DNA from: a virus
Taxonomy: Duplodnaviria; Heunggongvirae; Uroviricota; Caudoviricetes
Length of the DNA stretch: 42,163 nt
Reading direction: 5' to 3' (one strand)
IMG/VR virus record: IMGVR_UViG_2728369608_000007
The notes under the pieces were generated by a model. That model had not been told where the DNA came from. It saw nothing but the letters and a program-made list of their open reading frames with translations, and ran no database searches. Positions 14,021 through 42,163 of this stretch are shown here, in pieces (positions within the stretch are counted from its first letter, which is position 1; each line of letters opens with the position of its first letter). The position numbers and the translations under genes were made by a program.

Positions 14021-14587
14021 TTAATCTCCGAAAAAGATGACTGGTGCTTCCACCAGCGATTTAATACCGTACTCGCGCACAACCTTCCGGCGCAGGCGCA
14101 CCGTCATATCGTAGCGGCGGACCCATTGCTGATTAATAAGTTCAGGGAAGGGAGTCAGACCTGTGTAATCGCCAAGAGACAGCCCCAGCGCATTCAGTGC
14201 TGCATTGTTCTGCGGCACAGATATACCGTCACGAAACCGGGACGCATACACCATCCCCGCCGGTCCATAAAACGAAGCCATACACTCAATCGTTTCATGC
14301 CGCCAGAGCTGAGAGCCATCATCGGTCTGTCTGGTGAATGCCGGACTGTCATCACCTGACCATCCGATAACCCCAAACGCACACCAGTTCGTTTCAACCG
14401 GTAGCAGTGGCGGCTGCTCTTTCTGCCAGCGCGGGCGAACCATCCCGGCAGACAGGCCGGAAACGTTACGCATCCACTGGCTTAACAGCCTGTCGAGCGC
14501 TTCGTCATAATCCGGATCGCCACTGGTTGGTATTAACCATCCGCGCTCTGTACTGGTGTTATTGCTCAACCGGAGTTCCCCCATCAA
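14021..14587 (-). CDS. virion-associated hypothetical protein
   Basis: 188-aa ORF in the head-tail joining region. Confidence 0.5.
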   Translation of the reverse strand: MMGELRLSNNTSTERGWLIPTSGDPDYDEALDRLLSQWMRNVSGLSAGMVRPRWQKEQPPLLPVETNWCAFGVIGWSGDDSPAFTRQTDDGSQLWRHETIECMASFYGPAGMVYASRFRDGISVPQNNAALNALGLSLGDYTGLTPFPELINQQWVRRYDMTVRLRRKVVREYGIKSLVEAPVIFFGD

Positions 14588-14948
14588 ACGGCATCAACTC
14601 ACAATGCGCCTGAACGAATCCGGCACCATACGCTGTATACGGGTCGACGAAAGTCACACGATAATCACGGCCCTGATACGTCACGATATCGGCATCACGG
14701 CCAGTCTGTCCCTGTGTCAGTCGCTCAGTCGTCACAATCAGAATTGCACCACTGATTACCTGCCCGGCCTGCATACGACGGTTTTCCAGAGAGCGATCAA
14801 CAGTTACGACTCCGGCAAACTGCTTTTTAACTTCACTGTCGCTGCCGATCCCGTCCTCATCCACCGTTTGCACTCGGCGTGTTACCCACAAATTGAAGCC
14901 GCAAAAATCGGGGTCAAAAAGCACATCTGTTACATCAAGAGTCGGCAT
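14559..14948 (-). CDS. hypothetical protein (head-tail joining region)
   Basis: 129-aa ORF, overlapping neighbours. Confidence 0.5.
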   Translation of the reverse strand: MPTLDVTDVLFDPDFCGFNLWVTRRVQTVDEDGIGSDSEVKKQFAGVVTVDRSLENRRMQAGQVISGAILIVTTERLTQGQTGRDADIVTYQGRDYRVTFVDPYTAYGAGFVQAHCELMPFDGGTPVEQ

Positions 14949-15489
14949 CTTTATCCCTCACTACATGGGTAATAGCTCTGCGATATTGCCCGGTGTCAAT
15001 TAATGGTTTCGCCAGATCGGTTCCGGGAGATTCGCCAGCAACACGCCGGGCAAGTTCCAGTGTTGCCCCCTTGCGCCCCCGACGAGCCCGGGCTTCAACA
15101 GTGCTGTCAGCAAGCGGCGTAAAGCCGGTAATAGTCATGTAACGCCTGACGCCATTAGCGGCCAGCGTTCCGGCACGGTTGAGTGCGCGTTCTGCTCCCG
15201 CAGCATTACCATCAAGAGCAGCCTGCGCCGCGGTTTTGAGCTGCGGCACCGTCTGCTCTTCTGCCGATTTAACGCCGGGGACCAGGTGAGGTCGTGGCGG
15301 GATGTTCTGCTCTGGTGAGCCGTATTCGTTGAGGTAACCGATGCCCGCATTACCAAACGGAACATCATCCCGCCCGCTGTCTTCCGAAGGGATGCCGACC
15401 AGCACATCTTTTTTGGTTAACGACCTGAGCGCATCCAGAATGGCCTTAGCGTTATCCACCCTCGTTGTTACACCGCTTTTGAAACTCAT
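14935..15489 (-). CDS. hypothetical protein (head-tail joining region)
   Basis: 184-aa ORF. Confidence 0.5.
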
Positions 15490-32904: not shown

Positions 32905-33453
32905 ATGAAACTGAAGCTGAACAATGTTCGTCTGGCCTTCCCGTCTCTGTTTGAAGCTAAAACTGTAAACGGCGAAGGCGATCCGCGTTTCTCCGCAGTA
33001 TTTTTAATGTCTCCCAAACACCCACAACTGGAAGAAATCCGTAAAGCTATGAAGCAGGTAGCGAAGGAAAAATGGGGAGAGAAGTGGGAGCCCATTTATA
33101 ACCAGCTGGAGAAAAAACTCAATCTGTGCCTGCATGATGGTGATGAAAAAGCAGAGTATGAAGGCTTCCCCGGCAATTTCTTCCTGAATGCTGCTAACAA
33201 AGCGCGCCCAGCTGTTCTTGATCGCGATCGTTCGCCACTTATTCAGGCTGACGGACGTCCTTATGCAGGGTGCTATGTAAACGCCGTTATCGATATCTGG
33301 GCACAGGACAATAATTTCGGTAAACGCATTAATGCCTCACTCGGCGGAGTCCAGTTCCTGCGAGACGGCGATGCATTCGCTGGCGGCGGAGTGGCAAGCG
33401 CTGACGATTTCGACGATATCAGCGAAGGTGCTGATGCTGAAGCACTAATTTAA
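32905..33453 (+). CDS. ssDNA-binding protein, DUF2815-like
   Basis: 182-aa protein with acidic C-terminal tail (DDFDDI), in the canonical position after the DUF2800-like nuclease. Confidence 0.7.
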   Translation: MKLKLNNVRLAFPSLFEAKTVNGEGDPRFSAVFLMSPKHPQLEEIRKAMKQVAKEKWGEKWEPIYNQLEKKLNLCLHDGDEKAEYEGFPGNFFLNAANKARPAVLDRDRSPLIQADGRPYAGCYVNAVIDIWAQDNNFGKRINASLGGVQFLRDGDAFAGGGVASADDFDDISEGADAEALI

Positions 33454-33505
33454 CCCTACTTCATAGACGCCCGGTTAAACACCGGGCTACTGATTAGGCG
33501 TATAA

Positions 33506-34135
33506 TCACTCAGGAATCTTAATCTTTCTCAATTCTTTATTTAGTTCACAGATCTTTTTCTTAGACGGGAAAGTATCATACATCCAAAAACCAACAGTCT
33601 CTAAAACTATTATCATAACCATATACACAAGATAATTTAAAAGGCCTTCATTTTGCCCTATGGAAATAATGCAGATAATAGAAAAAAGGGTAAACAGCAC
33701 AAAACACAGAAAGGAAAACAGACGACTAATAATAAATAAAAAACCTGAAAAATCAACATTAATAAAAAACACTCCGTTATCTTTCTCTATATAATTCTGA
33801 AGCTTAATCAACTGATTTATATACTGTCTTTTTTCTAATCTATTGCAAATGTAAATAACATCTCTTCGGTTATAAGAGGATTGCAATTTCAGCGCATCAC
33901 GAATAATTTTATCATTTATTCTTTTTTCTATGGCTTTCTTATCCTCCTTATCCAGATAACGTTCATACTTAATTAAATATAAAATTAACTTCTTGACATA
34001 TTTAGGCTCTTTATACTTATAATTAAAAATGATCTTTCTTATCCAGACTCCCATAACAATCAAACATGAAAAAATATATCCAGCTATTTTCTCCAGATGC
34101 TCTGTATGGTCAATCAAGTATTGGATCATATGCAT
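33506..34135 (-). CDS. hypothetical membrane protein (moron, antisense to the replication operon)
   Basis: 209-aa ORF in very AT-rich DNA; hydrophobic segments at N-terminus and in the C-terminal third; K/E/Y-rich middle. Confidence 0.65.
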   Translation of the reverse strand: MHMIQYLIDHTEHLEKIAGYIFSCLIVMGVWIRKIIFNYKYKEPKYVKKLILYLIKYERYLDKEDKKAIEKRINDKIIRDALKLQSSYNRRDVIYICNRLEKRQYINQLIKLQNYIEKDNGVFFINVDFSGFLFIISRLFSFLCFVLFTLFSIICIISIGQNEGLLNYLVYMVMIIVLETVGFWMYDTFPSKKKICELNKELRKIKIPE

Positions 34136-34181
34136 AATTAATCTTTTAATCAGTTAATAGAATAAAAACCTAGGTAAACAC

Positions 34182-36245
34182 ATGTCCAATATACTATGGG
34201 GCGACCTGGAAACCTATTGCGAAATCCCTATTACGAACGGTACCCATGCGTATGCCGAAGGCGTTGAAGTGATGCTTTTCGCATGGGCTATCAACGACGG
34301 GCCAGTAAACGTGTGGGATATCACTGCCGGTGGTGGTATTCCACACGGCTTATACGAAGCAATCGCAGACCCTGAAACCCTGCTTTATTTCCATAACTCT
34401 CACTTCGACCGCACCGTTCTGCGTTATGCAATGCCGCGACTGGCACCGCCAGTCGAACGTTGGCGCGACACGATGGTGCAGGCGCTGGCGCACGGTCTCC
34501 CGGGGTCTCTGGGGGAACTCTGCGAAGTACTAGGCGTCCCGCAAGACAAAGCGAAGGACAAAGAAGGTAAAGCGCTGATCCAGCTGTTCTGTAAGCCACG
34601 TCCGAAAAACAGCAAACTGCGTCGGGCCACCAGTAAAACCCATCCGGAAGAATGGCGGCGCTTTGTTGCTTACGCCGGACTGGATATCGAAGCAATGCGT
34701 GAAGTCTATAAACGTCTGCCGAAGTGGAATTATCAGGGGACAGAGCTGGCGCTCTGGCATCGTGATCAGCAGATCAACGACCGGGGCGTCTGCATGGACA
34801 TGCAACTCGCGCGCGCTGCGATCGAAGCGGTAGACCAGGAGCAAAAGCGCCTGGCAAAGCGTACACAGGAAATGACTGATGGCGAAGTGCAGGCAGCCAC
34901 ACAACGGGACGCGTTGATTAAGCACATCGTTGAATCCTACGGTGTGGAGCTACCAGACATGCAACGCAGTACCCTGGAACGTCGTATGGCCGACCCCGAT
35001 TTATCATCTGCCGTGAAAGAACTGCTGGCTATCCGCCTGCAAGCCAGTACTACCAGCACCAGTAAATACAAGGCACTGATGAAAGGCGTAAGCCACGACG
35101 GGCGCTTACGCGGTACGCTACAGTTCTGCGGGGCGTCACGTACCGGTCGTTGGGCCGGACGGCTATTCCAGCCCCAGAACCTTCCCCGCCCTTCACTAAA
35201 ACAGGAACAAATAGACGAAGGCATCGAAGCACTGAAAGCCGGATGTGCAGACCTGCTGTTTGACAATATCATGGAACTAACCAGTTCAGCGTTACGTGGC
35301 TGCATTATCGCGCCAACAGGCAAAAAACTAGTGGTAAGTGACTTGTCAAACATTGAAGGCCGTATGCTGGCATGGCTGGCGGGAGAAGAATGGAAACTGA
35401 ATGCATTCAGAGAGTATGACGCTGGAACGGGTCCGGACTTATATAAACTGGCGTATGCAAAAGCTTTCGATATTGCACCAGATGATGTTGATAAACACAT
35501 GCGTCAGATCGGTAAAGTCATGGAACTCGGTCTGGGTTATGGAGGTGGTGTATCGGCTTTCATCACTTTTGCTCTGGTTTACGGTCTCGATCTCGACGAG
35601 CTGGCGAACGCCGCACTGCCAAACATTCCCCGCGATGTTATCCGCGAGGCAAAAAGCTGGTACGACGAATCGGTTAAGCGTAAGTCGACCTTTGGCCTGT
35701 CCGAGCGTGTATTCATCGCATGTGACTCGCTCAAGCGCCTGTGGCGCAGGGCGCACCCGGCGACCTGCGATTTCTGGTACGAGCTGGAGCGCACTGTCCG
35801 CACAGCAATCGCCACACCGCAAAAAACATTGTATTGCGGCTATCTTAAAATCCGACGTGATGGCGCGTGGCTGCGCATACAGCTACCATCCGGACGCGCT
35901 GTATGCTACCCGTCTCCGGTTATCGAACAAGGGAATATCACCTACATGGGTGTTAACTCTTATTCGCGTAAATGGCAACGACTCAAAACCTACGGCGGAA
36001 AGCTGGTGGAGAACGTCACCCAGGCGGCCGCCCGCGACGTTCTAGCCAGAAACATGCCGCTGATCGAGGGTGCCGGTTACAGCATTGTGCTAACGGTACA
36101 CGACGAGGTGATCACCGAAGCACCAGACACAGAAGATTTCAACGATAAAGCGCTTTCCGCGCTTCTCTCCACTAACCCCGAATGGGCACCCGATATTCCG
36201 CTGAACGCTGGCGGCTTTGAGGCGTACCACTACAAAAAAGATTGA
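34182..36245 (+). CDS. DNA polymerase, family A, with 3'-5' exonuclease domain
   Basis: Exo motif GDLETY; polymerase motifs DLSNIEGR (A), K...LGLGYG (B), VHDE (C). Confidence 0.9.
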
Positions 36246-36309
36246 TATAACTCACCTTATCGAGCTATGGCGACATGCTGAATTCGAGTAAATTAAAGGA
36301 ACAATACTT

Positions 36310-37071
36310 ATGCAGGAACTAACTGAAATGCCGATCAACTATCCATACCCGAGAGAATCTTTTCCTGACTTTTTGAGGGAGTGTGGGTTCACCAATTTTT
36401 CCCACGAACAGCGTGAGACTTATGACTGCTATCGTTTAACGAATGGCGTAATTGTTAACCTTTACACCACCCGGACCATTCAGTTTCAAGGGAACCCTCA
36501 AGAACGTCCCAATGTTGAAACTGCAATAATGTCCCATTTAGGAACGCCCCCCACGGCAACACCACTAGCCGTAGAACAGCCATCTGAGCTTCCCAAAAAG
36601 ATATTCATTGTTCACGGCCATGACCATACTGCAAAGGAACAACTTGAGCTAATCCTTCATAAACTTGGATTACCAGACCATTTCATTTTGCAGAATACGG
36701 GAGGGACTGGACTCACCATTATTGAAGAGCTTGAACGTGAAATTGGGCAAGGACAAACTGCTACTCGTTTCGGGATTGTTCTTTTGACACCTGATGATAT
36801 GGGATACTCAAAGCGCGCCGGTGAAGCAGAAATCCAACCCCGCGCAAGACAGAACGTTGTACTCGAGATGGGTATGCTTCTTTCGTCCTTAGGGCGCAGC
36901 AATGTAGCAATCCTTCAGAAACAGCACCTAGAACAGCCTTCTGATGCTAACGGGATTTTGTATCTGAATTTCAACGACCATGTACGTGAAACAGTTCCTC
37001 GTCTAGTGCAACGGTTACAAAATTCTGGTTTCGAATTTACACAAGCTCAAATAGCTAACGCTTCCTCGTAA
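36310..37071 (+). CDS. hypothetical protein with C-terminal TIR-like/SLOG-type domain
   Basis: KIFIVHGHD ... FGIVLLTPDD ... ARQNVVLEMGMLL matches the TIR-like nucleotide-binding domain signature (conserved Glu in NVxxExG); N-terminal about 100 aa unknown. Confidence 0.7.
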   Translation: MQELTEMPINYPYPRESFPDFLRECGFTNFSHEQRETYDCYRLTNGVIVNLYTTRTIQFQGNPQERPNVETAIMSHLGTPPTATPLAVEQPSELPKKIFIVHGHDHTAKEQLELILHKLGLPDHFILQNTGGTGLTIIEELEREIGQGQTATRFGIVLLTPDDMGYSKRAGEAEIQPRARQNVVLEMGMLLSSLGRSNVAILQKQHLEQPSDANGILYLNFNDHVRETVPRLVQRLQNSGFEFTQAQIANASS

Positions 37072-37095
37072 TTACCCCCTTATTGTTGATTACAA

Positions 37096-37117
37096 CCCTG
37101 CATTGCGGGGTTTTTTA
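37096..37117 (+). terminator. terminator-like hairpin downstream of the TIR-like gene
   Basis: CCCTGC-ATT-GCGGGG followed by TTTTTT. Confidence 0.5.
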
Positions 37118-37135
37118 TTTGGGAATAAAAACCCT

Positions 37136-37276
37136 ATGTCATTTAAATACCGGGACAGTCCGCTTTATTACCGGACTGCACGGGAGGCTTTGCGCCTTGA
37201 ACAGTCCAGCGGGTACGACCGGGCGATGCAGGTCTGGGCCAAAGCGAACGTCGGTTTGATTTTTGTCTGATGCAGA
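37136..37276 (+). CDS. small ORF (46 aa), low-confidence
   Basis: ATG-initiated ORF below the length cutoff of the ORF track; weak ribosome-binding site. Confidence 0.25.
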
Positions 37277-37306
37277 ACATGCGCGAAAAGCGTAAGGAGG
37301 TGGACG

Positions 37307-37501
37307 ATGTCTAATATCGATAATAAAGGTTGGGGGTTCCCCGCCCTGTCGAAAAAAGCACATTTCTTTAATTCGGGGGAAGCCATATCACTATGCGGAA
37401 AATGGATGTTCACAGGTATCAGGATTGACGAATGGCATGACCATCCTGAGAACTGCGCTATCTGCATGAAGAAACGCAAAAAGCAGGAAGGCGAAAGCTA
37501 A
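37307..37501 (+). CDS. small putative zinc-binding protein
   Basis: Strong SD (AAGGAGG); Cys/His pattern C-x13-H-x2-H...C-x2-C; stop overlaps the VRR-NUC start. Confidence 0.45.
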   Translation: MSNIDNKGWGFPALSKKAHFFNSGEAISLCGKWMFTGIRIDEWHDHPENCAICMKKRKKQEGES

Positions 37502-37785
37502 TGGCCTATGAACGTGAAAACCTAATCGAAAAGCACCTCGTCGCTGAAGTAAAAAAGGCTGGCGGGGTTGCCTTTAAGTTCGTATCTCCCGGTCTCCGCT
37601 CGGTACCAGATCGCATTGTTCTGCTACCCGGCGGTCGCATCGTCTTTGTCGAATGCAAAGCACCAGGCAAACCACCACGACCTGATCAGTTGCGCGAGCA
37701 TGAACGTCTGCGAAAACTGGGCTTTACCGTGGTAGTACTGGATAGTAAGGAGCTTTCATGTATATTAGGCAAAAAATTACAATAG
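37501..37785 (+). CDS. VRR-NUC domain nuclease
   Basis: PDRIVLL...IVFVECKAPG PD-(D/E)xK-type motif; characteristically precedes the SNF2 helicase in phage replication modules. Confidence 0.8.
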   Translation: MAYERENLIEKHLVAEVKKAGGVAFKFVSPGLRSVPDRIVLLPGGRIVFVECKAPGKPPRPDQLREHERLRKLGFTVVVLDSKELSCILGKKLQ

Positions 37786-37800
37786 GAGTCTGTGTAAGCT

Positions 37801-38718
37801 ATGGCTAAGCAACAAACGAAAGAAATAAACCAAGATGATGTAAAAGACAACAAAAATATGCCACCTCATATATGCGGCATTATTATGCCAATTGCGGACA
37901 TAGAAGGTTATCCCACTGGACATTGGAGAAATGTTCATGACATTATTTGTGAAGCATCAAATGATGCCGGATTCAAGGCAAATTTGGTAAGTTCAGATGA
38001 TGATGTTGCAGTAATACAAAAACGAATTGTTCAAAATCTTTATGAAAACCCCATAGTTGTTTGCGATATAAGTGCTCGAAACGCTAATGTAATGTTTGAA
38101 TTAGGAATGCGTCTCGCATTTGACAAACCGACCGTAATTATTAAGGACGAGCGCACTCCTTATAGCTTTGACATTTCATCAATTGAACATTTAGAGTACC
38201 CTTCGGATTTAAGATACCAATCAATCAATTTATTCAAAGAAAGACTTGCGAGCAAGATAAAAGAAACATATTTAAAGTCAGTAACTGATCCTGAATACAC
38301 AACATTCCTCAAACATTTTGGCACTTTCAAAGTTGCACAACTAGACCAGAAAGAAGTATCAGAAACTGAGTATCTGGCATCTGAGATTAAAGATATCAAA
38401 TCATTATTGATATCTCTTAGGGCAACAGCAACGACAAAATCCAGATTTTTCGACTCACCGAAAAATTACTCGCAGCAGGAAATTGACAACTCTGTAGATA
38501 TTATTAAAAATGGAGTTGCCAGTTATACTATAAGGAGTGAAGGATTTAGTATATCAAAATCAGCACTAGAAAAGTTACGCCAAAGACTACACAACGCAGG
38601 ATTTCAAGTCGAGCAAATAGTATTGACAGGAAAAGAAGTAATTATTCATCTGTCATCACCTTTAATAAATGAAGAAGAAAATATTTTTAAAGATGCAATA
38701 GTAACAGCACTATTATAA
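37801..38718 (+). CDS. hypothetical protein with N-terminal TIR-like/SLOG- or nucleoside 2-deoxyribosyltransferase-like domain
   Basis: AT-rich gene; ICGIIMPIAD ... IVVCDISARNANVMFELGMRL shares the D..N(A/V)xxExGM pattern with the 36310-37071 product. Confidence 0.65.
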   Translation: MAKQQTKEINQDDVKDNKNMPPHICGIIMPIADIEGYPTGHWRNVHDIICEASNDAGFKANLVSSDDDVAVIQKRIVQNLYENPIVVCDISARNANVMFELGMRLAFDKPTVIIKDERTPYSFDISSIEHLEYPSDLRYQSINLFKERLASKIKETYLKSVTDPEYTTFLKHFGTFKVAQLDQKEVSETEYLASEIKDIKSLLISLRATATTKSRFFDSPKNYSQQEIDNSVDIIKNGVASYTIRSEGFSISKSALEKLRQRLHNAGFQVEQIVLTGKEVIIHLSSPLINEEENIFKDAIVTALL

Positions 38719-38733
38719 ATAACATTTTTAAAA

Positions 38734-38766
38734 CAACAAAAGGTCTAAATTGGCCTTTTGTTGTTT
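38734..38766 (+). terminator. terminator-like hairpin downstream of the AT-rich gene
   Basis: CAACAAAAGG-N10-CCTTTTGTTG followed by TTT. Confidence 0.45.
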
Positions 38767-38780
38767 AGGAGCCATATTAT

Positions 38781-40175
38781 ATGCCCCCAAAATATATACC
38801 TCGCCCCTACCAAGTTCTCATTATCAACCACGAAACCGAAACCCTGCGCGGCAACATCTGGGCGGGGATGGGAATGGGTAAAACCGTGGCAACGCTCACT
38901 GCGCTGGAAGATCTCTTTATGGCAGGGGCAGAAACATGCCCCGCACTGGTCCTCGCGCCGCTGCGCGTGGCTGCCAGCACATGGCCGGATGAAGCACTGA
39001 AGTGGGGACATTTGCGCAATATCGAGGTGCAGCCAATTATTGGTAATGCCAAAGCGCGCTCTATGGCGCTGACGAACAGCAACGCAAGCGTGTTCACCAT
39101 CAACTACGATAACCTTGTCTGGCTGATTGAAGAATTGGGAGAACGATGGCCGTTCGGTACTGTCATTCCAGATGAAAGCACCCGGCTAAAATCCTTCCGG
39201 CTGCGCGGTGGTGGTAAGCGCGCGGCGGCGCTGGGCAAAGTGGCGCATAAGTATGTCCGGCGCTGGATAAATCTCACCGGTACGCCAGCACCGAACGGCC
39301 TGGTAGATTTGTGGGGACAATCGTGGTTTGTGGACCAGGGGCAACGTCTCGGGCGCACTTACGGCGCGTTTACCTCACGCTGGTTCAACTCGATACAGTT
39401 TCCGGGGCAGAGCTGGACCAAACTGGAGCCTTTTGCTCACTCACAGGGTGAAATACAGCGAGCGTTAGCCGATGTAACCCTCTCGCTGGATGCGGCCGAC
39501 TGGTTCGATATCAAAGACCCCATCCATAACGTAATCCGCGTGGATATGCCACCGAAGGCCCGTCAGCAGTATCGTGAAATGGAAAAGGAAATGTTCCTCG
39601 AGCTGAATGGCGAAGGCATCGAAGCACCGAACGCCGCGGCAAAGACACTGAAGTGTCTGCAAATCGCCAGCGGCGCAGTATACACAGATGACACCGGAAG
39701 TTGGTCAGAACTGCATGACACCAAACTACAGGCGCTGGACAGCATACTGACCGAAGCAGCTGGCGCACCTGTGCTGGTTGCTTATCACTGGAAACACGAT
39801 CTTGAACGCTTGCTTAAAGCATTCCCTCGCGGTCGTCACCTCGACCAGGATCCACAGACACTGCGCGACTGGAATTCCGGAAAGATTCCTGTTCTCTTTG
39901 CACACCCAGCCAGCGCGGGCCACGGCCTGAACATGCAGGACGGCGGAAATATACTGGTATTTTTCTCACACTGGTGGGACCTGGAGCAATATCAGCAAAT
40001 TATTGAACGTATCGGCCCCACCAGGCAGATACAGGCCGGACACAATCGTCCGGTATTTATTCACCACATTATTGCTGCCGACACTATGGATGAAATGGTG
40101 ATGGAGCGGCGCAACTCAAAACGAACAGTGCAGGACATCCTGCTCGATGCCATGAAAAAGAGAGGTATAGCATGA
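38781..40175 (+). CDS. SNF2-family helicase
   Basis: Walker A GMGMGKT, DEST (motif II), C-terminal helicase motifs. Confidence 0.85.
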   Translation: MPPKYIPRPYQVLIINHETETLRGNIWAGMGMGKTVATLTALEDLFMAGAETCPALVLAPLRVAASTWPDEALKWGHLRNIEVQPIIGNAKARSMALTNSNASVFTINYDNLVWLIEELGERWPFGTVIPDESTRLKSFRLRGGGKRAAALGKVAHKYVRRWINLTGTPAPNGLVDLWGQSWFVDQGQRLGRTYGAFTSRWFNSIQFPGQSWTKLEPFAHSQGEIQRALADVTLSLDAADWFDIKDPIHNVIRVDMPPKARQQYREMEKEMFLELNGEGIEAPNAAAKTLKCLQIASGAVYTDDTGSWSELHDTKLQALDSILTEAAGAPVLVAYHWKHDLERLLKAFPRGRHLDQDPQTLRDWNSGKIPVLFAHPASAGHGLNMQDGGNILVFFSHWWDLEQYQQIIERIGPTRQIQAGHNRPVFIHHIIAADTMDEMVMERRNSKRTVQDILLDAMKKRGIA

Positions 40176-40372
40176 GCGAGAAACCCGACGATTTACTCAC
40201 CCCGGATGAAGTATGCCAAAAGTTAGGTATTACACAGAAAACGCTATGTGAGTGGAATATTAAGCATCGTCATCGGGCTATCCTGGCACCAATTCGTTTC
40301 AGTGCAAAAGTAGTTCGTTATGAGCGCCGAAATATCGACGCTTTTATTCAAAAATGTCGCAGCCAGTATTAA
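40172..40372 (+). CDS. AlpA/excisionase-like small DNA-binding protein
   Basis: 66-aa HTH-like protein adjacent to the integrase. Confidence 0.6.
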   Translation: MSEKPDDLLTPDEVCQKLGITQKTLCEWNIKHRHRAILAPIRFSAKVVRYERRNIDAFIQKCRSQY

Positions 40373-41693
40373 CCTCGCCGCCGTAGCAATGCCACCTGCG
40401 CAAGTATGCTCCGCTCGTGAGCCTCGAAAGCTTCGCGCTTCAACGCAATCTCTTCCTGTAAAATCTCATCAGAAAAGTCGTAATGTTCTGCCATCGGGTC
40501 ATCTGACTTGCTGGAGTGGTGAAGGCAAAGGAGGCTGATTTCCCTTCGGTCTGAGCGGGAATAGCCTCTTTCCTTCATCAAGGCAATAACATTGCTCTTA
40601 AGGAATTTACGGCACATCGTATTAAATGCACCGTCTTTCCCTTTAACAGTCCCATCATGTTTTATTCCTTTTACAGCCCCGTCCGGGCTGTATGTTTTCA
40701 CCAGCTTATCCAGTGATCGTTTTGAAAATGGCTGCATTGGATCACGTGGCTGCAAAAATACATAATCCCTGTTGCACTCAGGAACTGAATCACGCCAGGC
40801 TTTCTGCTCGTCGATAATCCGCCGGATCTCAGGGGTTATCGGCAGGCGGAAAGCCTTTTGTGTTTTCATAGCCCCTCGCATGCCGATAACCCCTTCCGGA
40901 TAAACAATTTCACCAGCCTCCTCGTGAACGTAGTCCCAGCGCAGGTTATGGACATTAATCGGACGAACACCAGTGATGATCATGAAGCGAACAGCATTCT
41001 TCTGGTGTACAGAGGTGCAGGCAGCAACATTGAGCCAGAGTCGGGCGATTGATTCAATATCGGTAAAAAGCCGTGTGGGGGTAGGTTTCTGTACGCGGGA
41101 GGAAACATAATCATCTGGCAGACTGGCGGCAACATTGCGGCCGTTGCAAAGAGTAGGTGCGCAGAACTTCCAGAACCGACGGAGCTCGGCAAACAACTCC
41201 AGGGCGTTATTGTTCGAGCGAGTAGCGATCCACTCGTCCAGCACTTCCACCAGCCGATTGTATGTTACGTCGCTGAACACCTCGCGCTCGCCGAACGTTG
41301 CTTTAATCCGGTCGATACGCACCCCGTAGGTTGTGAAACTGTCCGCAGGCCACCGTCAGCCATACCTAGCGCTTTTTCGCGCGCCAGCTGGATAGCGAGC
41401 TCCGGCCACTCGCCGAGCTTTTTACCTTTGAGGCCCATCTTTTTTGGAAACTCGGCGTAAAATGTAACCTTACCGGCTTTGCTGAAATCGATACGGAGAT
41501 AGTTCTCTTTTTCGTATTTGGAACGGCGAGCCACGCCGGAAGCAGCGAGGATGATTTTGGCGGCAGCAACACAGATTTTCATGTGTGCGCTGGTATAGGG
41601 GGGTTTACAGGCGTCCCATTTTTCAGATGCGGCTAAAACATCGTCATTATTGGGGCTATCCGGATTATGTGTTACAGTGCGCGGCATTCTCAA
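40369..41693 (-). pseudogene. tyrosine integrase, reading frame interrupted (two overlapping ORFs 41265-41693 and 40369-41322); likely true start near 41582
   Basis: N-terminal arm-binding-type domain in one frame and catalytic domain in another; frames switch at a CCCC run near 41322-41325. Confidence 0.65.
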
Positions 41694-41893
41694 TCCTTAT
41701 CTGCGTAGGCGCAGAAAACAAGCACACACATACAAGTCTTTTCTACGGGACAAAATGCAATGTGTTGCGGCTTTGTGTTACTGGACTGAGTTTATCAAGG
41801 TTAAATACACTGGATCAACATACAGTAAGTTAATGACAGTAAAGCATACAAACTCGATACAACTTACTGATTTTTAAAATGATTTAACGGTAA

Positions 41894-42163
<270 letters not shown>

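Follow-up and report, generated by a model that had tools for sequence, protein, structure and literature searches.

What do two genes of low guanine-plus-cytosine (GC) content do inside the replication module of a prophage, and do they act together? The question is raised by IMG/VR virus record IMGVR_UViG_2728369608_000007 (Caudoviricetes), a stretch of 42,163 nucleotides hereafter called the window. In a first-pass annotation made from the sequence alone, two open reading frames, here termed ORF1 and ORF2, had been placed at 36310..37071 and 37801..38718 on the + strand, flanking a VRR-NUC gene; these positions hold, and a 64-aa (amino acid) ORF lies between the two as well. The annotation ascribed a common TIR-like/SLOG-type motif to both products and offered three functions, namely superinfection exclusion, counter-defence or remodelling of nucleotide pools. 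Following up on it computationally, we found that each protein joins a TIR-like domain with conserved catalytic residues to a variable domain, and that both genes are exchangeable cargo. We consider it moderately probable that they are two independent prophage morons, each a TIR-type N-glycosidase with a variable domain, which act in abortive infection or superinfection exclusion by NAD+ hydrolysis. The earlier reading was essentially right, apart from its SLOG label and the implied functional pairing. The two genes and their domains are as follows.

36310..37071, + strand: ORF1, 253 aa, single-gene TIR protein of PADLOC candidate family PDC-S35 (PADLOC, Pfam, PHROGs, RefSeq)
36331..36543, + strand: ORF1 N-terminal domain, aa 8-78, alpha/four beta strands/alpha (AlphaFold predicted local distance difference test score, pLDDT, ~90)
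36598..37023, + strand: ORF1 TIR domain of the CAP12/Pycsar type, aa 97-238; codon of the predicted catalytic Glu186 at 36865-36867, site completed by R180, N182 and D212
37801..38718, + strand: ORF2, 305 aa, N-terminal domain like TIR as well as nucleoside 2-deoxyribosyltransferase (NDT), linker helix, variable C-terminal domain; member of a large unannotated family
37867..38286, + strand: TIR-like domain at the N-terminus of ORF2 (aa 23-162); Glu100 encoded at 38098-38100, invariant residues N96 and D136
38473..38712, + strand: ORF2 C-terminal domain, aa 225-304, beta-beta-alpha twice (pLDDT 86-94); presumed specificity or sensor domain, variable in the family

TIR-type domains in ORF1 and ORF2

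ORF1 was already known as a member of a catalogued candidate family and is annotated in RefSeq as 'TIR domain-containing protein' (WP_001551506.1); what we add is its probable sensor and its prophage-hotspot context. Residues 10-253 cover positions 3-245 of the 245-position PADLOC model for PDC-S35 (PDLC05003, E 1.2e-108), while residues 97-222 match Pfam PF10137, the CAP12/Pycsar TIR family, far above threshold (E 2.9e-31, 108.4 bits vs a cut-off of 24.7). Lower-scoring matches to the CBASS Cap12 and PycTIR models were obtained as well, and PHROGs lists the protein as phrog_16442. Among 2,703 homologs, all of the 120 listed carry PF10137 and most are about 250 aa long; all 36 family members tested matched this model, too. 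Aligning the family profile to SfSTING and PycTIR placed R180, N182, E186 and D212 of ORF1 on R78, N80, E84 and D110 of SfSTING, and all four residues are invariant across the ORF1 family. Structural searches returned solved TIR-STING structures, Cat1, TIR-SAVED, SARM1 and SpbK. Judged by its profile matches and active-site residues, ORF1 is an unambiguous CAP12/Pycsar-type TIR protein, and NAD+ hydrolase activity is predicted for it.

The partner domains of both proteins had been left as unrecognised, which we can partly amend for ORF1. Its N-terminal domain is probably RnlA-N/TBP-like and a presumed sensor: the RnlA_toxin model PF15935 was weakly matched by 11 of the 36 family members (best E 8.5e-4, below the 27-bit cut-off) and by ORF1 itself over aa 46-64 (E 0.14), DUF3378 by two of the 36, the family profile matched LsoA (5hy3) at E 0.21, and RNase H3 appeared at Foldseek rank 33. 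Since all these matches lie below curated thresholds, we treat the assignment as a lead. Anantharaman et al. link the N-terminal domain of RnlA/LsoA to the TBP-like N-terminal domain of RNase HIII, which binds RNA/DNA hybrids (PMC3710099). A search with the ORF1 N-domain alone against 1.84 billion representatives gave four uninformative matches, one of them a low-complexity protein.

ORF2 is named 'hypothetical protein' in RefSeq (WP_001551510.1) and falls into phrog_3634 of 'unknown function'; Pfam and NCBIfam scans gave no match above threshold, and none of the 120 listed among its 4,466 homologs has a precomputed Pfam domain. The family is nonetheless well defined by its own conservation. 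About 55 columns within the first ~185 residues are invariant among 40 diverse members, including N96, E100 and D136, and the signature motifs CGIIMPI, HW, NxNVMFELG and EHLxYPxDLR recur, while the last ~100 residues can be aligned among close relatives only. In the AlphaFold model (pLDDT 75), a beta-alpha domain of five units, whose third helix bears E100, is followed by a linker helix and a confidently predicted C-terminal domain. Searched alone, this C-terminal domain returned no homologs, which we take as a limit of the search, as close full-length homologs exist. The N-terminal domain reaches 50-66% identity in genomes of Acidobacteriota, Bacteroidota, Verrucomicrobiota, Planctomycetota, Nitrospinota and Lentisphaeria, with 334 confirmed hits among GTDB species representatives.

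All 40 ORF2-family members matched the PADLOC CBASS 'Effector TIR' hidden Markov model (HMM; PDLC00733, best E 1e-8). The NDT family PF05014 was weakly matched by 37 of the 40 around the Glu helix, the best E of 0.0037 lying below the curated cut-off; ORF2 itself scores 13.2 bits vs a cut-off of 28.8, and ORF1 does not match this model. To PF10137, ORF2 aligns with 16.2 bits (E 0.011, below cut-off), and 13 of the 40 members show matches of this sub-threshold kind. The closest structural neighbours are the TIR domain of Cap12, which ranks best, and the NDT-fold hydrolase MilB; a sequence-profile search of the PDB with the ORF2 family gave nothing significant. Compared with SfSTING, ORF2 keeps the Asn four residues before the Glu, the Glu itself and the Asp of the PSD motif, and has an Asn (N94) at the position of R78. 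From these profiles and models we place the N-terminal domain of ORF2 in the TIR/NDT N-glycosidase superfamily, as a divergent member that comes nearest to the Cap12 type. Profile and structure searches of both proteins thus agree with the TIR-like/NDT fold that the motif had suggested, for ORF1 above the Pfam cut-off.

This motif, a strand ending in Asp followed by a Glu-bearing helix, is present in both proteins (FGIVLLTPDD...ARQNVVLEMGMLL in ORF1 and IVVCDISARNANVMFELGMRL in ORF2), and it occupies equivalent places in the two AlphaFold models, where strand beta3 ends in the Asp and the Glu follows in the third helix. Pairwise BLASTP of ORF1 and ORF2 was not significant (E 0.04). Comparison of the two family profiles by hhalign gave E 2.5e-4 over the full length and, after trimming to the domains, E 7.5e-5 with 62% probability over 97 columns, and a second shared motif, HLE(Y/Q)PSD, is aligned there as well. 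We restricted the use of this alignment to the part from the Glu helix to the PSD motif, because further upstream beta2 of ORF2 was paired with beta3 of ORF1, seemingly out of register with the AlphaFold topologies. The SLOG label had to be dropped: at E <= 1, neither ORF1 nor ORF2 matched a LOG/SLOG family in Pfam or NCBIfam, and family-wide none occurs in the full list for the ORF1 family or in the 25 of 30 families listed for the ORF2 family. BLASTP also reported a short similarity (E 0.01) between the C-terminal helix of ORF1, RETVPRLVQRLQNSGFEFTQ (36985-37044), and a helix in the C-domain of ORF2, KSALEKLRQRLHNAGFQVEQ (38557-38616). As hhalign of the ORF2 C-domain against the N-domain or TIR domain of ORF1 lent no support to a relationship (5-9% probability), this likeness is probably a chance match of an amphipathic helix with a GF turn.

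Two cargo slots in a replication module

The region of interest is part of an Escherichia coli prophage whose integration site is beside yfhL, and it is located close to the prophage's right end. Over positions 36200-38800 the window shares 100% identity with two induced phages, vB_EcoM-689R2 and vB_EcoM-611R5, as well as with 24 complete E. coli genomes. The following features surround the two genes.

34182..36245: PolA, upstream of ORF1 (GC 54.1%)
36246..36309, + strand: left end of the ORF1 cassette (from the empty-slot comparison), an intergenic leader with the ribosome-binding site AAAGGAAC
37094..37120, + strand: intrinsic terminator closing the ORF1 cassette, 8-bp GC-rich stem and T-run
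37136..37314, + strand: ANR-family regulator, a phage backbone gene frameshifted here (frameshifted pseudogene in RefSeq)
37307-37501 and 37501-37785, + strand: backbone genes between the slots, a 64-aa ORF (phrog_2358) and the VRR-NUC nuclease (phrog_93)
38730..38766, + strand: hairpin after ORF2, directly before the SNF2 ribosome-binding site, 14-bp stem, -21 kcal/mol, z = -5.2
38781..40175: SNF2, downstream of ORF2 (GC 54.6%)

ORF1 and ORF2 are separately acquired single-gene cargo, as judged from their patchy presence among syntenic phages and their deviant base composition. The lower GC content noticed before was borne out, with 45.1% in ORF1 and 34.4% in ORF2 (39.8% and 25.8% at third codon positions, respectively) vs the values of PolA and SNF2 given above. 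In relatives with an empty first slot (our loci L022 and L023), the ANR start codon follows 6 nt after the PolA stop codon; the window contains ~890 extra bases at this point (36246-37133), which correspond to ORF1 with its terminator and form a clean insertion. Among 5,426 complete E. coli genomes, the backbone from PolA to SNF2 was found in 159, and of these 37 have ORF1 and 24 have ORF2. The count for ORF1 is a lower bound, because a divergent allele, which also matches PDC-S35 end to end, fills the first slot in ECONIH2. Since most relatives lack both genes, we rejected the idea that they are core replication genes; the comparison of related prophages instead agrees with the variable cargo proposed at the outset.

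The second slot, between VRR-NUC and SNF2, is hypervariable among related prophages. In place of ORF2, individual prophages hold BstA (PADLOC E 1e-115), DUF6338, PDC-S42 accompanied by two unknown genes, a Dcm methyltransferase, an Arc/Arc/Rha module, or unknown genes that are 236 or 265 aa long and for the most part lie on the opposite strand. A reverse-strand GHKL ATPase is an alternative content of the first slot. In the clinical isolate E. coli JNEC-KY203, IS1 splits ORF2 (locus L028, 1501-3195) and leaves ORF1 intact. The varied contents and the split ORF2 indicate that both slots are dispensable, exchangeable cargo positions that also accommodate known defence genes. The split calls to mind the toxic TIR-V, which Wang et al. 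(2024, PMC11350192) reported as disrupted by IS1/IS4, and may hint at a fitness cost.

Each gene had been described as followed by a terminator-like hairpin. After ORF1 this is a canonical terminator, found by a consensus scan, with a stem at 37094-37112 followed by TTTTTATTT. The hairpin after ORF2 is strong, as none of 200 shuffled sequences folds equally well; the consensus scan did not call it, because its T-run lies partly within the stem and runs into the ribosome-binding site of SNF2, and it is possibly a weak or bidirectional terminator. A promoter scan of the leader before ORF1 (36246..36309) gave no convincing sigma-70 promoter. Before ORF2 there is one promoter-like site with 9 of 12 matches (37739-37766), a kind of site no commoner in this region than in shuffled sequence. 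An Rfam scan of 33000-42163 found no RNA family.

Both families are widespread beyond this prophage. Homologs of ORF1 were seen as the first cassette after an integron-type integrase, adjoining Mrr_cat and PemK, and in Vibrio cholerae on an integrative element that also carries a TrwC relaxase and an SMC-like ATPase. Those of ORF2 were seen in Aeromonas, in Klebsiella lambdoid prophages between the replication and nin/Q regions, at the border of a small integrase island of Pseudomonas, and in the superintegron of Vibrio parahaemolyticus, where the homolog forms a cassette and a BstA_C cassette lies nearby. These Klebsiella prophages (loci L006-L009) also encode, downstream of their lysis genes at ~14150-15130, an Acb2/Tad1-hairpin family protein with the fold of an anti-CBASS/anti-Thoeris sponge. 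Relatives of ORF2 are found in 20 of 50,697 phage records, all of them temperate. Two phages of Gram-positive hosts, Javan306 of Streptococcus and TMW 1.46 P1 of Latilactobacillus, encode a homolog of ~200 aa on the strand of the integrase and repressor, opposite the early lytic genes.

In the RefSeq annotation of the identical stretch, the gene order is tyrosine integrase, helix-turn-helix (HTH) gene, SNF2, a hypothetical gene, VRR-NUC, a second hypothetical gene, frameshifted ANR, TIR domain-containing protein, DNA polymerase, a reverse-strand hypothetical gene, DUF2815, DUF2800 and the cI-like repressor, followed by a divergent cro/primase arm. The + strand of the window carries the cI-type repressor (HTH and S24 peptidase) and the replication genes, so that ORF1 and ORF2 belong to an early operon co-oriented with the repressor. 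The - strand carries a Prim-Pol/DUF5906 primase and a holin and, according to the annotation of the identical phage, Q, the other lysis genes, terminase and structural genes.

Several backbone genes of this module deserve a brief description. Translation of ANR ends after 44 aa in the window; the frameshift is present in every inspected prophage with this ORF1 allele, and ANR is intact in empty-slot relatives and in ECONIH2 with its divergent TIR allele. The block of 64-aa ORF and VRR-NUC gene, in which PF08774 was matched at E 0.002, keeps its position in relatives. The small gene between ANR and VRR-NUC is itself exchangeable: the place of the 64-aa ORF is taken in relatives by a 99-aa DUF4406 protein (PF14359, E 6e-34; locus L023, 1564-1863), a DUF7446 protein or a class I S-adenosylmethionine (SAM)-dependent methyltransferase. 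We take DUF4406 to be a member of the NDT clan, which would make it a further gene of the TIR/NDT superfamily in this module.

A third cargo-like gene is located at 33506-34135 on the - strand, between the DUF2815 gene, which resembles that of a single-stranded DNA-binding protein, and PolA. Its GC content is 28.7%, and its 209-aa product falls into phrog_10579 (E 7e-107) without matching any family of Pfam or PADLOC; weak similarities to holins and transporters suggest that the C-terminal half may be hydrophobic. In the corresponding slot, the Providencia relative described below has a reverse-strand gene of 234 aa. At the left end of the window, a 281-aa ORF of low GC content (36-40%) with a GTG start and no Pfam match (569-1414) lies beside a 115-aa ORF consisting of a resolvase/invertase N-terminal domain alone (1419-1769; PF00239, E 1e-28). 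The segment 569-1769 may be the remnant of an invertible tail-fibre switch, or more cargo.

Proposed role and competing explanations

But why should a prophage carry two such genes? Of the three functions originally considered, the context favours superinfection exclusion or abortive infection. According to this hypothesis, each protein would couple a conserved TIR-type N-glycosidase, whose third helix holds the catalytic Glu (E186 in ORF1, E100 in ORF2), to a variable partner domain, RnlA-N/TBP-like and N-terminal in ORF1, alpha/beta and C-terminal in ORF2. The proteins would stay inactive in the lysogen until a superinfecting phage presents a component, or an intermediate of its replication, that the variable domain senses. 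This would then lead to oligomerisation of the TIR domains, with the active site completed in trans by D212 in ORF1 or D136 in ORF2 as in SfSTING, and the hydrolysis of NAD+ would arrest or kill the infected cell before the invader multiplies, to the benefit of the prophage. Precedents exist for several of these steps. Filament formation activates the NADase of TIR-STING by completing the site that includes the catalytic E84 and the trans-acting D110 (PMC9402430), 12 of 32 E. coli TIR proteins tested conferred phage defence, among them single proteins with a C-terminal TIR domain (PMC11350192), and DUF4062 is a TIR-like NADase defence activated by the phage portal (bioRxiv 10.64898/2026.05.01.722283).

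Several points weigh against this hypothesis. The remaining 20 of the 32 E. coli TIR candidates gave no defence (PMC11350192), no publication that mentions PDC-S35, the RefSeq accessions or the phage names turned up in the literature searched, and PDC-S35 is a candidate family only. ORF2 passes the threshold of no named family tested, so that its assignment rests on sub-threshold matches to curated models; its substrate may not be NAD+, because an Asn replaces R78 of SfSTING. The conservation of its N-terminal domain across phyla is stronger than is usual for immune effectors or mobile accessory genes. Without a convincing upstream promoter, and given the co-orientation with the replication genes, expression in the lysogen is predicted only. 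The strong conservation and the Asn-for-Arg site together mean that the substrate or product of ORF2 may differ from plain NAD+ hydrolysis. With corresponding reserve, and rather tentatively, we suggest that ORF2 represents a previously unnamed, phylum-spanning TIR-like family of more than 4,400 proteins, which would serve as stand-alone immune effectors of prophages and integrons and carry a hypervariable C-terminal sensor.

The same features of ORF2 lead to the first alternative. ORF2, and less likely ORF1, might be a nucleotide N-glycosidase of the NDT/DNPH1/MilB type acting on deoxynucleoside monophosphates, nucleoside monophosphates or a modified nucleotide rather than on NAD+, either to remodel nucleotide pools for phage replication or as a nucleotide-depleting defence effector. 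The weak PF05014 matches around the Glu helix, the lack of an Arg equivalent to R78, the location in the replication module and the DUF4406 gene beside VRR-NUC in prophage relatives are all consistent with such an enzyme. We nevertheless consider it rather unlikely. Every PF05014 match stays below the curated cut-off, whereas the TIR-effector HMM was matched by all 40 members at better E-values, and the best structural match of ORF2 is a TIR domain. Nor does this alternative agree well with a gene that is dispensable cargo, split by IS1 in one strain, whose homologs include an integron cassette and genes on non-phage islands and whose family was not found in virulent phages among the 50,697 records. 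Moreover, NDT-like defence effectors such as that of Retron-Eco1 have themselves been reported as NADases.

A second alternative would turn the proposed immune function around: one or both proteins could be counter-defence enzymes, made early in the lytic cycle, which destroy host immune signals or their precursors, such as NAD-derived Thoeris signals or cyclic nucleotides. Co-orientation with the replication genes in the early operon, the use of NAD-derived molecules by TIR-fold enzymes and the Acb2/Tad1-like sponge gene in Klebsiella prophages with an ORF2 homolog speak for it. We regard this as very improbable, as both families are common outside phages, in integron cassettes and as island genes beside Mrr and toxin-antitoxin genes, and neither was found in virulent phages in the phage-record search. 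The slots in question hold bona fide defence genes such as BstA, and the ORF1 family was first singled out for its embedding in BREX, DISARM or type I restriction-modification (RM) loci. We know of no TIR-fold anti-defence enzyme.

Do the two genes depend on each other, as their description as a pair had implied? Each of the 24 E. coli genomes that carry ORF2 carries ORF1 as well, but with copies sharing at least 99% identity; and in a syntenic but diverged prophage of Providencia alcalifaciens (L031-L033) both genes occupy the same two slots, with an ORF1 homolog of 65% identity. Upstream of DUF2800, this Providencia prophage also has a gene of the Nmad5 (nucleotide-modification-associated) kind. 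However, ORF1 is combined with other cargo in the second slot in at least 13 E. coli prophages, and an ORF2 homolog without ORF1 was found at five loci that share the backbone. Among 160 ORF2-family loci, drawn from 80 species-representative genomes and 80 IMG/VR contigs, an ORF1 homolog lies within 7 kb in four, all of which are identical E. coli phage contigs. When the flanking genes of ORF2 homologs, three per side, were clustered, no family reached more than 15 of ~150 loci, the largest cluster being one phage group in which the gene lies beside terminase. An obligate two-gene system was rejected on this co-occurrence analysis; because the genes occur separately and ORF2 has no conserved neighbour, both families appear to work as stand-alone genes. 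An interdependent two-component system, be it hetero-oligomeric TIR assemblies or a signal producer with its effector, is hence hardly credible despite the TIR-like chemistry common to both proteins and their shared occurrence in E. coli and Providencia, the more so as three backbone genes and a terminator set ORF1 and ORF2 apart.

If the hypothesis of two independent defence morons holds, the locus is of wider relevance, since prophage defences shape which phages infect clinically important E. coli lineages. Many of the 24 complete genomes with both genes are from human isolates; one record is of sequence type ST38, and strain names suggest carriers of extended-spectrum beta-lactamase (ESBL) and OXA. 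ORF1 would add a prophage-borne single-protein TIR defence with a candidate sensor domain of nucleic-acid type. ORF2 is a testable representative of a very large uncurated family, apparently another branch of TIR/NDT N-glycosidases. The slots between PolA and SNF2, with BstA, PDC-S42, DUF6338, the GHKL ATPase and unknown genes as contents, could serve as a defence hotspot to be mined in this phage family.

Comparison with known systems

Among characterised systems, the closest in chemistry are the CBASS effector Cap12/TIR-STING (SfSTING) and PycTIR of Pycsar. The TIR domain of ORF1 belongs to the same Pfam family, PF10137, and keeps the complete R/N/E/D set including the trans-acting Asp of the PSD/PTD motif, while ORF2 keeps N, E and D. 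The chemistry expected in common, and predicted for both ORF1 and ORF2, is oligomerisation-activated NAD+ hydrolysis. In contrast to these systems, library scans revealed no STING, SAVED or cyclic-nucleotide-binding domain in either protein, and the TIR domain of ORF1 is C-terminal. The neighbourhood, with PolA, ANR, VRR-NUC and SNF2, holds no CD-NTase or cyclase gene. We therefore rejected a role as CBASS or Pycsar effectors, there being neither cyclase nor sensor domain; ORF1 and ORF2 are stand-alone proteins with other partner domains.

ORF1 matches the PDC-S35 model end to end as a single-gene system. PDC families are guilt-by-embedding predictions: their genes were picked because they lie inside BREX, DISARM or type I RM loci. 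ORF1 in the window, by contrast, is prophage cargo outside any other defence system. It further shares its architecture and host species with the E. coli single-protein TIR defences of Wang et al. (2024, PMC11350192), which are short proteins that differ at their N-termini, have a conserved TIR domain at the C-terminus and cause abortive infection when triggered by a portal or tail fibre; relative to the 32 candidates of that study, ORF1 may be an active, an inactive or an unscreened protein. On the side of the partner domain, the alpha/four-beta/alpha domain of ORF1 recalls, through its weak but recurrent sub-threshold matches, the N-terminal domains of RNase LS (RnlA/LsoA) and, TBP-like, of RNase HIII, which suggests a nucleic-acid sensor.

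With BstA and other prophage abortive-infection morons, ORF1 and ORF2 share the niche: they are single-gene, low in GC and variably present, and BstA itself fills the second slot of a sister prophage, although its fold and mechanism are unrelated to both. For ORF2, the nearest parallel is DUF4062 'Swarozyc' (Osinski et al. 2026 preprint, bioRxiv 10.64898/2026.05.01.722283), a single-gene antiphage system that stands between the TIR and NDT superfamilies by sequence and whose layout is shared by ORF2: the catalytic domain is N-terminal, its Glu lies at around residue 97-100, and there follow a helical stalk and a C-terminal region. DUF4062 was absent from the Pfam matches of ORF2 itself at E <= 1 and from the 25 of 30 families listed for the 40 members, the other five being matched by a single member each, and the signature motifs of ORF2 define a separate family. 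We regard ORF2 as the more interesting of the two genes; it belongs to an unnamed, very large and phylum-spanning TIR-like family with a hypervariable partner domain that is analogous to DUF4062 yet distinct from it.

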